Source of the DNA: Escherichia coli
GTDB lineage: Bacteria; Pseudomonadota; Gammaproteobacteria; Enterobacterales; Enterobacteriaceae
Reading direction: 5' to 3' (one strand)
NCBI RefSeq assembly: GCF_965641715.1
Contig: NZ_OZ282453.1
DNA length: 64,000 bases
A program made the translations under genes and the position numbers. A model generated the notes under the pieces. That model saw only the letters and a list, made by a program, of their open reading frames with translations. It was not told where the DNA came from and did no database searches. Shown here one piece after another: positions 1 through 64,000 of the stretch. Within the stretch, counting starts at the first letter, position 1. Each line of letters starts with the position of its first letter.

Positions 1-602
1 TAGGCATTGGTTTTGCCGGCGTGGCGCTGGCATTCGGTTTGACCGTTCTGACGATGGCCTTCGCTGTTGGTCATATTTCTGGTGGTCATTTTAACCCAGC
101 GGTCACTATTGGTTTATGGGCTGGCGGACGTTTTCCGGCAAAAGAAGTCGTTGGCTACGTAATTGCCCAGGTTGTCGGCGGTATTGTTGCAGCGGCGCTG
201 CTGTATTTAATTGCCAGTGGTAAAACGGGTTTTGACGCGGCAGCCAGCGGTTTTGCTTCTAACGGTTATGGCGAGCATTCACCAGGCGGTTATTCCATGC
301 TTTCCGCGCTGGTAGTTGAACTGGTATTGAGTGCAGGTTTCCTGTTGGTGATCCACGGCGCAACCGACAAATTCGCTCCGGCAGGTTTTGCGCCGATCGC
401 TATTGGTCTGGCCTTAACCCTGATTCACTTAATCAGTATTCCGGTGACTAACACTTCTGTTAACCCGGCGCGCAGCACCGCAGTTGCCATCTTCCAGGGC
501 GGCTGGGCATTAGAACAACTGTGGTTCTTCTGGGTGGTGCCAATTGTCGGTGGCATTATCGGTGGTCTGATTTACCGGACTCTGCTGGAAAAGCGTAATT
601 AA
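1..602 (+). CDS. aqpZ: aquaporin Z, 5'-truncated at the window edge (frame 3, stop TAA 600-602)
   Basis: Translation [35 protein letters not shown]... contains both MIP-family NPA motifs (NPAVT, NPARS) and matches E. coli AqpZ; the true N-terminus lies upstream of the window. Confidence 0.95.
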
Positions 603-1059
603 TTAGCATTGGCATTTTATCTGCCCTGGTTGTTTTATCTTCGACATTACAAACCGCACGGGTATTGGTGGCGTCAAAATCGCTGAAGCGTTCCCCGAAG
701 GCCGGGGCAGCCCACATGGATGTGGGCTGAGGGTGCGTCTTACAGGACGTTACCTCGCGCCCGACCCGGTAGCCGAAGGGGATAAGCTGAAGGTACCGCG
801 CAGCGGCGATTTTGTTCGCCAGAGCCCGGGGGTGCAGGGGGCGGCGGCGACTGGCCGCCCCCTGCGCGCTCCCTGCGCCAGTGGCTTTATATGGCATTGC
901 ACATGAAAGGAGCGCAACAATGCTAAACACTCATATAGAATTAAAAATCCCCCTCTGATGCATAACATTTCCTTTTAATTGCAACTTTACTCGTCCTTCC
1001 GCTTTCAGTAGTGTGTCATCGCGCATTTCGACTTCTTTCTTTGCAAGGGCTGGGTTTTC

Positions 1060-1959
1060 ATGTTTTCTGGGTTGTTAATCATTCTGGTTCCCCTGATTGT
1101 GGGTTACCTCATTCCGCTTCGCCAACAAGCTGCGTTAAAAGTTATTAATCAGCTATTAAGCTGGATGGTTTACCTTATTCTCTTTTTTATGGGTATCAGT
1201 CTGGCGTTTCTCGATAACCTCGCCAGTAACCTGTTGGCGATTCTGCATTATTCTGCCGTCAGTATTACCGTTATTTTACTGTGTAATATTGCCGCCCTTA
1301 TGTGGCTGGAGCGCGGTCTGCCGTGGCGCAACCACCATCAGCAAGAAAAACTCCCGTCGCGTATTGCGATGGCGCTTGAGTCGCTAAAACTGTGCGGCGT
1401 AGTAGTGATTGGTTTTGCCATTGGCCTGAGTGGACTGGCTTTCTTACAACACGCGACCGAAGCCAGTGAATACACCTTAATTCTGCTACTTTTCCTCGTC
1501 GGTATTCAGTTGCGCAATAATGGCATGACCTTAAAGCAGATTGTCCTTAATCGCCGGGGAATGATTGTCGCCGTGGTGGTGGTTGCCAGTTCATTAATTG
1601 GTGGTTTAATTAACGCCTTTATTCTTGATCTACCCATCAATACCGCGCTGGCAATGGCCTCTGGTTTCGGCTGGTATTCTCTTTCCGGTATTTTATTGAC
1701 CGAATCTTTTGGTCCGGTAATCGGGAGCGCGGCGTTTTTTAATGATCTGGCCCGTGAGCTGATTGCAATTATGTTGATCCCTGGGCTGATTCGCCGCAGC
1801 CGCTCTACCGCACTGGGCTTATGCGGTGCGACGTCGATGGATTTCACCCTGCCCGTTCTTCAACGTACTGGCGGGCTGGATATGGTCCCGGCGGCAATTG
1901 TTCACGGTTTTATTCTTAGCCTGTTAGTGCCGATCCTCATCGCCTTTTTCTCTGCGTAA
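1060..1959 (+). CDS. lysO: lysine exporter LysO (YbjE), 299 aa inner-membrane protein
   Basis: ORF track 1060..1959; hydrophobic multi-helix translation recognised as E. coli YbjE/LysO, same length. Confidence 0.9.
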   Translation: MFSGLLIILVPLIVGYLIPLRQQAALKVINQLLSWMVYLILFFMGISLAFLDNLASNLLAILHYSAVSITVILLCNIAALMWLERGLPWRNHHQQEKLPSRIAMALESLKLCGVVVIGFAIGLSGLAFLQHATEASEYTLILLLFLVGIQLRNNGMTLKQIVLNRRGMIVAVVVVASSLIGGLINAFILDLPINTALAMASGFGWYSLSGILLTESFGPVIGSAAFFNDLARELIAIMLIPGLIRRSRSTALGLCGATSMDFTLPVLQRTGGLDMVPAAIVHGFILSLLVPILIAFFSA

Positions 1960-1992
1960 TACCTCTCTGGCGGTAGATCCCTGCCGCCAAAA

Positions 1993-61169: not shown

Positions 61170-61299
61170 AACCATCCTCAAAATGTACTTTTTGTCTGAA
61201 TGTAGACTATCACGGGAAAACTCTCTGAACAGTTGACGCACATCAATCTAACTTTCATTCGAAAGTATTTTAATGTTTGAACGAAACAGAGAGGCAACT

Positions 61300-62199
61300 A
61301 TGATTTTCAATATTCAGCGCTACTCGACCCATGATGGCCCCGGTATCCGCACGGTCGTATTTCTTAAAGGCTGTTCGCTGGGCTGCCGCTGGTGTCAGAA
61401 CCCGGAAAGCCGCGCCCGCACGCAGGATCTGCTGTATGACGCACGACTGTGTCTGGAAGGCTGCGAGCTGTGCGCTAAGGCAGCGCCGGAAGTGATTGAG
61501 CGCGCGCTGAATGGTTTGCTTATTCATCGGGAAAAGTTAACCCCGGAGCATCTGACGGCGTTAACCGACTGCTGCCCGACACAGGCATTAACCGTGTGTG
61601 GTGAAGTGAAAAGCGTTGAGGAGATCATGGCGACCGTTTTGCGGGATAAACCGTTTTACGATCGCAGCGGCGGAGGCTTAACGCTTTCGGGTGGTGAACC
61701 CTTTATGCAGCCGGAAATGGCGACGGCGCTGCTGCAAGCCAGCCACGAGGTCGGCATTCATACTGTGGTAGAAACCTGTCTGCATGTGCCGTGGAAATAT
61801 ATCGCCCCTTCTCTGCCCTATATCGATCTGTTTCTTGCCGATTTAAAACACGTTTCCGACGCGCCGTTTAAACAGTGGACCGACGGTAACGCCGCCAGGG
61901 TGCTGGATAACCTGAAAAAACTCGCCGCAGCGGGCAAAAAAATCATTATCCGCGTGCCACTGATTCAGGGCTTTAATGCCGACGAAACCTCTGTAAAAGC
62001 CATTACCGATTTTGCCGCCGACGAGCTGCACGTTGGCGAAATTCATTTCCTGCCCTACCACACGCTGGGCATCAACAAATATCACTTACTTAATCTGCCC
62101 TATGACGCCCCGGAAAAACCGCTTGATGCGCCAGAACTGCTCGACTTTGCCCAGCAGTATGCCTGCCAGAAAGGGTTAACCGCGACCTTACGAGGATAA
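61300..62199 (+). CDS. ybiY: glycyl-radical-enzyme activating protein YbiY (PflE), radical SAM
   Basis: ORF track 61273..62199; start chosen at ATG 61300 ([36 protein letters not shown]...) after a GAGG SD, with 61273 as the alternative. Confidence 0.85.
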
Positions 62200-62204
62200 C
62201 AACC

Positions 62205-64000
62205 ATGACCACACTGAAACTGGACACGCTCAGCGACCGCATTAAAGCGCACAAAAATGCGCTGGTGCATATTGTGAAACCGCCGGTCTGTACCGAGCGC
62301 GCGCAGCACTATACCGAGATGTATCAACAACATCTCGATAAGCCGATCCCGGTACGTCGCGCGCTGGCACTGGCGCATCACCTGGCGAATCGCACTATCT
62401 GGATCAAGCACGATGAGTTGATCATCGGCAACCAGGCAAGCGAAGTTCGCGCCGCGCCGATCTTCCCGGAATATACTGTCTCGTGGATCGAAAAAGAGAT
62501 TGATGATCTGGCAGATCGTCCCGGTGCTGGCTTTGCGGTGAGCGAAGAGAACAAACGCGTTCTGCATGAAGTGTGCCCGTGGTGGCGCGGTCAGACCGTA
62601 CAGGATCGCTGCTACGGCATGTTTACCGATGAGCAAAAAGGTCTGCTGGCGACCGGCATCATTAAAGCGGAGGGCAATATGACCTCCGGCGATGCGCACC
62701 TGGCGGTGAATTTCCCGCTGCTGCTGGAAAAAGGGCTTGATGGTCTGCGTGAGAAAGTAGCGGAACGTCGCTCGCGCATCAATCTGACGGTGCTGGAAGA
62801 TTTGCACGGCGAACAGTTCCTGAAAGCGATTGATATCGTGCTGGTGGCAGTCAGTGAACACATTGAACGTTTCGCTGCCCTGGCGCGTGCAATGGCCGCG
62901 ACCGAAACCCGCGAAAGCCGTCGCGATGAACTGCTGGCGATGGCAGAAAACTGCGATCTTATCGCCCACCAGCCGCCGCAGACTTTCTGGCAGGCGCTGC
63001 AACTGTGTTACTTCATTCAGTTGATATTGCAGATCGAATCTAACGGTCACTCGGTATCGTTTGGTCGTATGGACCAGTATCTCTACCCGTACTATCGTCG
63101 TGATGTTGAACTCAACCAGACGCTGGATCGCGAACACGCCATCGAGATGCTGCATAGCTGCTGGCTGAAATTGCTGGAAGTGAACAAAATCCGCTCCGGC
63201 TCACACTCAAAAGCCTCTGCGGGAAGTCCTCTGTATCAGAACGTCACCATTGGCGGACAAAATCTGGTTGATGGTCAACCAATGGACGCGGTGAATCCCC
63301 TCTCTTATGCGATCCTCGAATCCTGCGGTCGCCTGCGTTCCACTCAGCCTAACCTCAGCGTGCGTTACCACGCGGGAATGAGCAACGATTTCCTCGACGC
63401 CTGCGTACAGGTGATCCGCTGCGGCTTCGGGATGCCCGCCTTCAACAACGACGAAATCGTCATCCCGGAATTTATTAAACTCGGTATTGAACCGCAGGAC
63501 GCTTACGACTACGCAGCGATTGGTTGTATCGAAACCGCCGTCGGTGGCAAATGGGGCTATCGCTGTACCGGCATGAGCTTTATCAACTTCGCCCGCGTGA
63601 TGCTGGCGGCGCTGGAAGGCGGTCGGGATGCCACCAGCGGCAAAGTGTTCCTGCCACAAGAAAAAGCGTTGTCAGCGGGTAACTTTAACAATTTCGATGA
63701 AGTAATGGACGCGTGGGATACGCAAATCCGTTACTACACGCGTAAATCAATCGAAATCGAATATGTCGTCGACACCATGCTGGAAGAGAACGTGCACGAT
63801 ATTCTCTGCTCGGCGCTGGTGGATGACTGTATTGAGCGAGCGAAAAGCATCAAGCAAGGCGGCGCGAAATATGACTGGGTTTCTGGCCTGCAGGTTGGCA
63901 TTGCCAACCTCGGCAACAGCCAGGCGGCCGTGAAGAAACTGGTATTTGAACAGGGCGCGATTGGTCAGCAACAGCTGGCTGCCGCACTGGCGGATGACTT
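62205..64000 (+). CDS. ybiW: glycyl radical enzyme YbiW (PflF, pyruvate formate-lyase family), 3'-truncated by the window edge
   Basis: Open frame-3 ORF from ATG 62205 (MTTLKLDTLSDRIKAHKNALV...) to the window end; absent from the ORF track only because it has no in-window stop; GAGGA SD upstream. Confidence 0.9.
   Translation, partial: MTTLKLDTLSDRIKAHKNALVHIVKPPVCTERAQHYTEMYQQHLDKPIPVRRALALAHHLANRTIWIKHDELIIGNQASEVRAAPIFPEYTVSWIEKEIDDLADRPGAGFAVSEENKRVLHEVCPWWRGQTVQDRCYGMFTDEQKGLLATGIIKAEGNMTSGDAHLAVNFPLLLEKGLDGLREKVAERRSRINLTVLEDLHGEQFLKAIDIVLVAVSEHIERFAALARAMAATETRESRRDELLAMAENCDLIAHQPPQTFWQALQLCYFIQLILQIESNGHSVSFGRMDQYLYPYYRRDVELNQTLDREHAIEMLHSCWLKLLEVNKIRSGSHSKASAGSPLYQNVTIGGQNLVDGQPMDAVNPLSYAILESCGRLRSTQPNLSVRYHAGMSNDFLDACVQVIRCGFGMPAFNNDEIVIPEFIKLGIEPQDAYDYAAIGCIETAVGGKWGYRCTGMSFINFARVMLAALEGGRDATSGKVFLPQEKALSAGNFNNFDEVMDAWDTQIRYYTRKSIEIEYVVDTMLEENVHDILCSALVDDCIERAKSIKQGGAKYDWVSGLQVGIANLGNSQAAVKKLVFEQGAIGQQQLAAALADD

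Follow-up and report, generated by a model that had tools for sequence, protein, structure and literature searches.

Our analyses of a 64-kb window of Escherichia coli DNA (contig NZ_OZ282453.1; "the window" denotes the whole stretch of 64,000 nucleotides) have identified four segments, designated ins1 to ins4, that interrupt a backbone otherwise colinear with that of strain K-12. These segments are a pentapeptide-repeat islet between ybjQ and ybjP, a phosphotransferase system (PTS)/sulfatase islet between artJ and rlmC, a hexapeptide-repeat acetyltransferase cassette between rybB and rcdA, and a toxin-antitoxin cassette between rimO and dgcI. Their fixed positions, their differing combinations in other genomes and the patchwork of core alleles around two of them are probably best explained if the window is a normal non-K-12 segment that holds four polymorphisms of differing origin and age, which each occupy a single fixed intergenic site and have spread by recombination. 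All four islets are known, annotated polymorphisms, with all of their genes already annotated in RefSeq, and nothing in them falls outside known biology.

Identification of four islets in the aqpZ–ybiW region

Comparison by blastn with positions 862000–925000 of MG1655 identified the window as the aqpZ→ybiW region of E. coli, equivalent in reverse complement to K-12 915.9→862.0 kb, with the gene order aqpZ, lysO, hcp ... moeB, fsaA, ybiY, ybiW. The two sequences align in five long colinear blocks of 95.7–99.1% identity, together with two short blocks at the aqpZ end, and the colinear blocks are interrupted by exactly four window-only segments (Table 1). A first-pass annotation, made from the sequence alone, had described four insertions in a K-12-syntenic backbone, and the alignment recovers them at the sites where it had placed them. 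Its attribution of the DNA to a non-K-12 source also holds, since the nearest complete genomes show only 98.9–99.4% identity to the window over 25 kb.

Table 1. Coordinates of the islets and of the associated features in the window.
Feature	Position	Strand	Size	Context or evidence
ins1	11386..13942		2557 bp	replaces 46-bp middle of the 125-bp K-12 ybjQ-ybjP divergent intergenic region; alignment gap and junctions
Pentapeptide-repeat open reading frame (ORF)	11535..13337	-	600 aa	GC 0.32; 589 aa from an alternative ATG start
ybjP-artPIQMJ backbone between ins1 and ins2	13943..18585	+		95.7% identity to K-12; divergent alleles
ins2	18586..23449		4864 bp	between artJ stop and rlmC stop (convergent); K-12 has 205-bp filler of repetitive extragenic palindromes (REP)/bacterial interspersed mosaic element (BIME)
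Sulfatase gene, C-terminal part	18636..19862	-		Pfam PF00884, PF16347
Insertion sequence (IS) IS186, IS4 family	~19863..21199	-		transposase ORF 20033-21151; ends ambiguous by up to 4 bp
Sulfatase gene, N-terminal part	21200..21466	-		Pfam PF00884, residues 4-89
PTS IIB subunit	21478..21798	-	106 aa	Pfam PF02302
PTS IIC subunit, ascorbate/galactitol type	21820..23163	-	447 aa	NCBIfam NF009550, 964 bits (cutoff 583); Pfam PF03611
rybB small RNA (sRNA) gene	35034..35112	+		Rfam RF00110, 104 bits
ins3	35120..35897		778 bp	between rybB and rcdA stop, within rybB attB core; K-12 has 9 bp
Hexapeptide-repeat acetyltransferase (annotated 'serine acetyltransferase')	35287..35838	+	183 aa	Pfam PF00132, 53.5 bits
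ins4	47153..48148		996 bp	between convergent rimO stop and dgcI stop; K-12 has 42 bp
Promoter-like site TTGAAA-16-TATAGT	47321..47357	+		overlaps 26-nt palindrome (candidate operator); consensus matches only
RelE-family toxin gene (predicted)	47373..47759	+	128 aa	Pfam PF06296, 113.9 bits (cutoff 27)
Helix-turn-helix (HTH; XRE/MqsA-like) antitoxin gene (predicted)	47749..48078	+	109 aa	Pfam PF01381, 37.8 bits (cutoff 23); overlaps toxin gene by 11 nt

The absence of integrase and tRNA hallmarks, which the first-pass annotation had also noted, was borne out by the searches. There are no tRNA genes in the 64-kb window, Rfam matches across it are limited to rybB and the REP-derived naRNA4 (17596–17676), no integrase domain was found in any islet ORF by NCBIfam and Pfam profile searches, and a repeat search revealed no terminal repeats at the islets besides those of IS186. 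The islets thus do not show the combination of integrase, tRNA/tmRNA target and flanking direct repeats that marks a classical genomic island. The islets had further been described as lower in GC. Their values (ins1 0.333, ins2 0.478, ins3 0.407 and ins4 0.419) do lie below that of the rest of the window (0.516), but the ins2 sulfatase gene is backbone-like (0.52) and the core genes dgcI (0.43) and pdeI (0.42) are as AT-rich as ins3 and ins4, and low GC therefore does not separate accessory from core DNA in this region.

Distribution of the islets among E. coli genomes

The frequencies of the islets were counted among 5426 complete E. coli genomes. ins1 is present in 1128 of these, mostly at 95–99% identity with some copies down to 80–90%; ins2 without the IS in 565, in two allele classes of ~99% and ~90.5% identity; ins3 in only 70, all at ≥99% identity; and ins4 in 1138, at 95–100% identity. 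Each islet occupies one place per carrier genome (median 1), which is chromosomal and has identical annotated neighbours, and the full loci of sampled strains agree with this. In every carrier, a variable single-copy segment is thus found between the same two core genes, as at an integration hotspot, and it has no integrase, tRNA or att repeats of its own, the exception being ins3, which lies within a phage attB core.

When the sampled full loci are written in the order ins1 ins2 ins3 ins4 (1, present; 0, absent), six combinations are observed: 0000 in K-12 and Nissle 1917 (phylogroup B2), 0001 in M23917 and MS1679, 1001 in SX48, 1101 in TUM13936 and CE0007a (and in O157:H7, as judged from its matches), 1110 in C325, and 1111 in the window and at least 10 complete genomes (e.g. 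EC1515 and EC974). All four presence/absence combinations exist both for ins1/ins4 and for ins3/ins4, and these sites must therefore either have recombined with one another or have undergone gain and loss more than once; recurrent loss could also give rise to such combinations. A query that runs from ins1 through ins2 of C325, which lacks the IS, reaches at least 80% coverage in 566 of the 5426 genomes, as against 565 ins2 carriers overall, while ~560 further genomes have ins1 only and ins2 without ins1 was not seen in any of the sampled complete genomes. ins2 is therefore nested within ins1 and the two are not independent. The claim of the first-pass annotation that the four insertions arose independently is accordingly upheld by the six combinations and by the range of 70 to 1138 carriers, except for this pair.

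The same data bear on the suggestion that all four segments arrived on a single large piece of imported DNA. Such an event would agree with the nesting of ins2 in ins1, with the presence of ins1 and ins2 in at least 30 of the 70 ins3 carriers, and with the at least 10 genomes that hold all four. Against it stand the sixteen-fold range in frequency, combinations such as ins4 alone and ins1, ins2 and ins3 without ins4, the differing ages of the segments (ins3 copies at ≥99% identity versus ins1 and ins2 alleles down to 80–90%) and the unrelated origins of their cargo. A single linked acquisition, which the first-pass annotation had named as the outcome that would tell against its account, is contradicted by the differing haplotypes; the observed combinations therefore exclude it for practical purposes, and we attach next to no probability to it. 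In one further genome, NZ_CP135595.1 (strain GDSC2227PM), the distance from ins1 to ins4 is ~13.7 kb longer than in the window, so that a further insertion lies between them.

Divergent core alleles around the islets

The core genes beside ins1 and ins2 are represented in the window by divergent alleles. Identity to K-12 is 89% for ybjP and 93% for artJ, which adjoin these two islets, and 99–100% beside ins3 and ins4. Relative to the window, ybjP is ≥95% identical in 1619 genomes, 90–95% in 666 and 80–90% in 3141, and the artJ allele is rare, with 394 genomes at ≥95% (12 of them at ≥99%) and 5039 at 90–95%. In comparison with C325, ins1 and ins2 differ by 0–0.4% and the artM–artJ stretch located between them (17000–18585) by 5–6%; comparisons with TUM13936, Nissle and K-12 likewise show alternating patches of ~0% and 2–6% divergence. 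Such patchwork flanks are what recombination in flanking genes would produce, and from them, together with the combinations of islets, we infer the spread of the islets by this route. Once present, the islets would be inherited vertically, and homologous recombination in the conserved flanking genes would move them between lineages or erase them, giving rise to mixed combinations and patchwork backbone alleles. Homologous recombination accounts in this way for spread and reshuffling, and not for the first insertion of ins1, ins2 and ins4.

Two observations on this stretch may be recorded separately. The core lipoprotein gene ybjP (13943–14500) is unusually polymorphic, with allele classes at ~98%, 94%, 87.6% and 84% identity to the window across 5424 genomes, and its first 58 aligned bases show only 74% identity to K-12. 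The naRNA4 match lies between artM and artJ, where C325 is ~140 bp longer.

Gain or loss of the islets

Absence from K-12 may reflect either gain elsewhere or loss in K-12, and the polarity of the islets was examined in a species-representative genome scan with a PotI probe, which yielded at least 80 loci, including E. albertii and one divergent E. coli, and which did not reach the ins4 site. No islet protein homologues were found in the 80 outgroup/other-species loci listed. In Kosakonia, Citrobacter, Enterobacter, Klebsiella and others, ybjP lies next to ybjQ; E. albertii, Klebsiella oxytoca and Pseudocitrobacter have rcdA next to ybjL; and in the divergent E. coli SCPM-O-B-8794 sites 1–3 are empty. 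Since sites 1–3 are empty wherever the outgroup loci reach them, ins1 to ins3 are read as gains within E. coli. The identity among copies gives an indication of relative age: ins3 is young, because all of its copies are ≥99% identical, and ins1, ins2 and ins4 are old, because their copies differ by up to 5–20%, ~10% and ~5%, respectively.

The alternative, in which all four islets were present in the E. coli ancestor and were deleted in K-12 and most other strains, draws its best evidence from ins4. In Kluyvera georgiana and K. sichuanensis the same toxin-antitoxin pair is found in the same orientation directly downstream of gsiD, with toxins of 73% and 68% amino acid (aa) identity, and decayed ins4 variants and truncated proteins exist; the deep within-species divergence of ins1, ins2 and ins4, which indicates that they are old, also fits with ancestral presence. 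An Enterobacter has a 54%-identical pair at another location. Because Kluyvera has the pair beside gsiD, loss of ins4 in the K-12 lineage is possible. As an account of all four islets, however, differential loss is unlikely. It is opposed by the direct adjacency of ybjP–ybjQ and rcdA–rybB–ybjL in E. albertii (rcdA/ybjL side), the divergent E. coli and many genera, by the lack of islet proteins in the loci listed, by the empty state of all four sites in Nissle 1917, by the near identity of every ins3 copy, and by the K-12 fillers, which are unrelated sequences (a BIME and terminator hairpins) and not deletion scars. The description of the segments as insertions, made in the first-pass annotation, thus stands for ins1 to ins3, and its direction is uncertain for ins4.

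Several observations weigh against the interpretation that we favour, in which islets of differing age were spread by recombination. The Kluyvera synteny favours the ancestry of ins4 over its gain, and the 80 loci listed include neither E. fergusonii nor the cryptic Escherichia clades nor Salmonella. No recombination tract was found that is tied to ins3 or ins4, the flanks of which closely match K-12, and the mismatch profiles around ins3 are alike in the carrier C325 and the non-carrier TUM13936. Further, vertical inheritance and loss, with no transfer, could largely account for the nesting of ins2 in ins1 and for the enrichment of all four islets in the same kinds of strains (O157:H7, O145:H28 and ST648-like).

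The acetyltransferase cassette at the rybB attachment core

ins3 differs from the other islets in its location. Strain WP5-S18-ESBL-08 carries a complete P2-like prophage (ogr ... integrase) between rybB and rcdA; its integrase is beside rcdA, and a 27-bp core, GTGGGTTTTTTGTTGCCTGAAATTTAT, is duplicated at both ends. This attB core overlaps the rybB terminator and the following ~19 nt, and ins3 breaks it after GTTATCTAAA. Nearly all of the empty-site strains examined have a different version of the 19-nt spacer from the rybB T-run to the rcdA stop. Such variability would be expected of a heavily used attB, and it resembles scarring from successive rounds of integration and excision. The closest relatives of the ins3 acetyltransferase (75% and 54% aa identity) adjoin tail-fibre genes of a P1-like element and of P2-like prophages, and phage copies of it are found in vB_EcoM-613R2 (73% nucleotide identity) and ESSI2_ev129, in the latter directly downstream of a P2-like integrase. 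The ins3 gene points to rcdA, as a gene that follows the integrase would be expected to do.

On balance, these observations make it most likely that ins3 is what remains of a P2-like prophage once inserted at the rybB 3' end, a reading that we hold with moderate confidence. A P2-like prophage would have integrated site-specifically at this position and then been lost, and the piece left behind would be an acetyltransferase moron (an accessory phage gene) from between the place where the integrase would be and rcdA. The location, the orientation and the relatives of the gene all resemble those of P2-like (Peduoviridae) prophages, which occur at the 3' ends of sRNA genes and carry morons near their tail-fibre genes or integrase. 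Unlike such prophages, ins3 has no integrase, no other phage genes and no clear second core; its right end resembles the att core weakly, the acetyltransferase is its sole gene, and its phage homologues are 54–79% identical at the aa level. Set against the remnant reading are also the findings that no prophage with an identical acetyltransferase was found (the phage copies reach at most the nucleotide identity given above) and that ins3 has no DNA similarity to the prophage of WP5-S18-ESBL-08.

These results bear on the statement of the first-pass annotation that the segments were acquired by homologous recombination and not by site-specific integration. The single sites, the mosaic flanks of ins1 and ins2 and the variety of combinations are in keeping with the first half of this statement; the second half fails for ins3, because ins3 is read as a P2-like prophage remnant within an attB core. 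Extending the latter reading to all four islets, as decayed prophages or integrase islands that inserted site-specifically and lost their mobility genes, is in our view quite improbable. It can appeal to the real P2-like attB between rybB and rcdA, to the resemblance of ins3 to a prophage remnant and to the E. albertii type strain, which has a lambdoid integrase gene beside a truncated rlmC. However, ins1, ins2 and ins4 have no integrase, tRNA/sRNA target, flanking direct repeats or phage-like gene, the homologues of the ins4 pair that were examined lie in ordinary chromosomal contexts, and the apparent E. albertii prophage is inside rlmC and not in the artJ–rlmC spacer.

Two candidates concerning ins3 were rejected. 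As a serine O-acetyltransferase, the function under which it is annotated, the protein scored 81.5 bits for EpsC (the best match; cutoff 150) and 71.5 for CysE (cutoff 210.65), with all NCBIfam equivalogs below their cutoffs, and only a generic hexapeptide-repeat fold is supported. A 15-nt near-repeat (ATCCCCAAAATCTCC / ATCCTCAAAATCTCC) is found at 35119–35133, at the left edge of ins3, and at 35920–35934, 22 nt inside the 3' end of rcdA; it was set aside as an att site or target duplication, since the WP5-S18-ESBL-08 prophage defines a different core sequence.

The PTS/sulfatase islet and its IS186 copy

The functions given here for the cargo genes are predictions based on their sequences. 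ins2 encodes a putative sulfatase and PTS IIB and IIC subunits (Table 1); no PTS IIA domain was found among the ins2 ORFs, so that a complete transporter of IIA, IIB and IIC is not encoded. Annotations of the sulfatase gene in intact form exist for C325 (where it is 493 aa long), TUM13936 and CE0007a. In the window the gene is split by a copy of IS186, which the first-pass annotation had missed in its description of the islet. The copy is 100% identical over 1343 bp to IS186A of K-12, has terminal inverted repeats and encodes an IS4-family DDE transposase (NCBIfam, 133 bits; cutoff 115). It is flanked by the direct repeat GGTATAGATCCC at 19851–19862 and 21200–21211, which duplicates 12 bp of a G-run/C-run target; C325 has this target in uninterrupted form (GGGTATAGATCCCC). 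It differs from the K-12 copy only in its insertion site.

This insertion is absent from all complete genomes carrying ins2 (best coverage 95%) and is found in several draft assemblies, each only ~99% identical to the window. Because complete ins2 genomes occur without it, the IS186 insertion is a late secondary event and not the vehicle of the islet; IS186 would have transposed into the sulfatase gene after the islet was in place, at a typical G/C-flanked target. In the draft OU349842.1 the far flank of IS186 joins hyf-type hydrogenase genes rather than the remaining part of the sulfatase gene, which suggests an IS-mediated rearrangement.

The artJ–rlmC site exists in other states as well. 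In Nissle 1917 the spacer is just 28 bp long, and the K-12 BIME therefore represents a third state of the site. In other genera the gap between rlmC and artJ ranges from ~0.1 to >7 kb, which makes it a generally variable spot. In E. albertii NBRC 107761, rlmC is truncated after ~237 codons and is followed by a lambda-type integrase gene (Arm-binding and Phage_integrase domains) and other phage-like genes; a prophage appears to have inserted inside rlmC in this strain. Within the AT-rich spacer from the rlmC stop to the PTS IIC start, the window has a palindrome with 21-nt arms at 23349–23394 (ATAACCGTGATCGATCGGTTA / TAATCGATCGATCACGATTAT), which may be a candidate operator or a bidirectional terminator.

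The pentapeptide-repeat islet

Beyond its single long ORF, ins1 consists of 605 bp of AT-rich upstream DNA. The predicted protein scores 34.5 bits for PF13599 (below the 38-bit cutoff) and 20.2 bits for PF00805 (exactly at the cutoff), and a search of PDB sequences gave only weak matches to pentapeptide-repeat proteins (E = 0.08–0.6). Full-length homologues are found in E. coli and Shigella only: among 1.84 billion representatives the sole full-length match is the protein's own cluster, and the rest are fragments or generic pentapeptide repeats. In the window the 600-aa frame is uninterrupted, and it corresponds to a 600-aa cluster of 6177 members. RefSeq calls the ORF a pseudogene ('missing C-terminus', 413 codons) in C325, TUM13936, SX48 and CE0007a, and an intact pentapeptide-repeat protein elsewhere.

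A 95%-identical homologue is labelled 'putative type III effector' by one source. EspX2 of O157 is ECs0876 on S-loop57 (PMC2323221); judged from the gene number, its locus is probably different from that of ins1. The protein was rejected as the Hailong effector HalA, the NCBIfam score (23.6 bits; cutoff 250) reflecting repeat similarity only. The PADLOC defence-system library gave no match for the ins1, ins3 or toxin proteins and only generic HTH matches for the antitoxin, and the structure predicted for the ins1 protein from its single sequence had a mean predicted local distance difference test score (pLDDT) of 37.5 and was unusable.

ins1 also alters the region between its two neighbours. 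Since K-12 homology resumes just 18 nt ahead of the start codon of ybjP, the ybjP promoter would lie inside ins1, and part of the ybjQ upstream region is replaced as well. It is improbable, but would be of interest, that ins1 and/or ins3 are an unrecognized regulatory or phage-resistance adaptation and not neutral baggage. If this were the case, ins1 would exchange the whole ybjP promoter for 2.5 kb of 33%-GC DNA, with a possible regulatory effect, and ins3, which puts a phage-type acetyltransferase immediately past the rybB terminator, could alter a surface polysaccharide and block the rybB attB against P2-like phages.

The toxin-antitoxin cassette

The two adjacent small genes of ins4, with a toxin family well above its cutoff and a DNA-binding partner, point to a type II toxin-antitoxin system. 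The overlap of the genes, the strong match to PF06296, the HTH partner and the palindrome at the putative promoter are features shared with toxin-first type II pairs (HigBA/MqsRA-like order). Unlike MqsA, the antitoxin has no zinc-ribbon part, and its MqsA-family NCBIfam score (47.1 bits) is below the cutoff of 61.8. The neighbouring dgcI/pdeI genes (48148–51832) are absent in the two Kluyvera species, where the toxin-antitoxin pair directly abuts gsiD, and these genes may be an older insertion at the same spot.

Comparison with known systems and significance

Each of the elements involved (viz. IS186, RelE-type toxin-antitoxin pairs, PTS/sulfatase islets and P2-like prophages at sRNA genes) is of a known kind. 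E. coli O157:H7 differs from K-12 by 177 O-islands (PMC8565820), for which S-loops is another name (PMC2323221), and the islets resemble these in being strain-specific segments defined relative to K-12, many such islands being small and without mobility genes. O157:H7 genomes contain ins1, ins2 and ins4 at 98–99.9% identity, and these three islets, being absent from K-12, fall under the O-island definition. In contrast, ins3 is not in O157:H7 (97% coverage), and the IS186 copy in the sulfatase gene is neither in O157:H7 nor in any complete genome. A second parallel is provided by the 133 integration hotspots of E. coli, at which segments spread through homologous recombination in the core genes on either side (Touchon et al., 2009; PMC2617782). 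The mosaic flanks and the presence/absence combinations fit this published model, and the mechanism put forward in the first-pass annotation is thus the textbook one for the species. As at these hotspots, the islets are flanked by the same two core genes in all strains, without an integrase or tRNA, and one site may hold different contents, as illustrated by artJ–rlmC with its 28-bp spacer, 205-bp BIME or 3.5-kb islet in two allele classes; only ins1 and ins2, and not ins3 and ins4, have flanks of raised divergence.

The islets illustrate how accessory DNA is organized in E. coli, as small cassettes at fixed intergenic sites, the reshuffling of which also involves divergent alleles of the core genes beside them. 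Their origins and ages are diverse: one is an orphan gene, one a metabolic islet, one a prophage remnant and one a toxin-antitoxin pair, the prophage origin being held with the reserve expressed above. Three lessons follow for the reading of such regions: absence from K-12 is no proof of insertion, low GC alone is no mark of accessory DNA, and an islet without an integrase may still descend from site-specific phage integration. Beyond correct annotation the importance of these findings is small.

Other observations

The only other break in the alignment to K-12 is in the aqpZ–lysO intergenic region (606–954), which consists of short unalignable pieces and a 276-bp block of 90.6% identity that is GC-rich and repeat-like.

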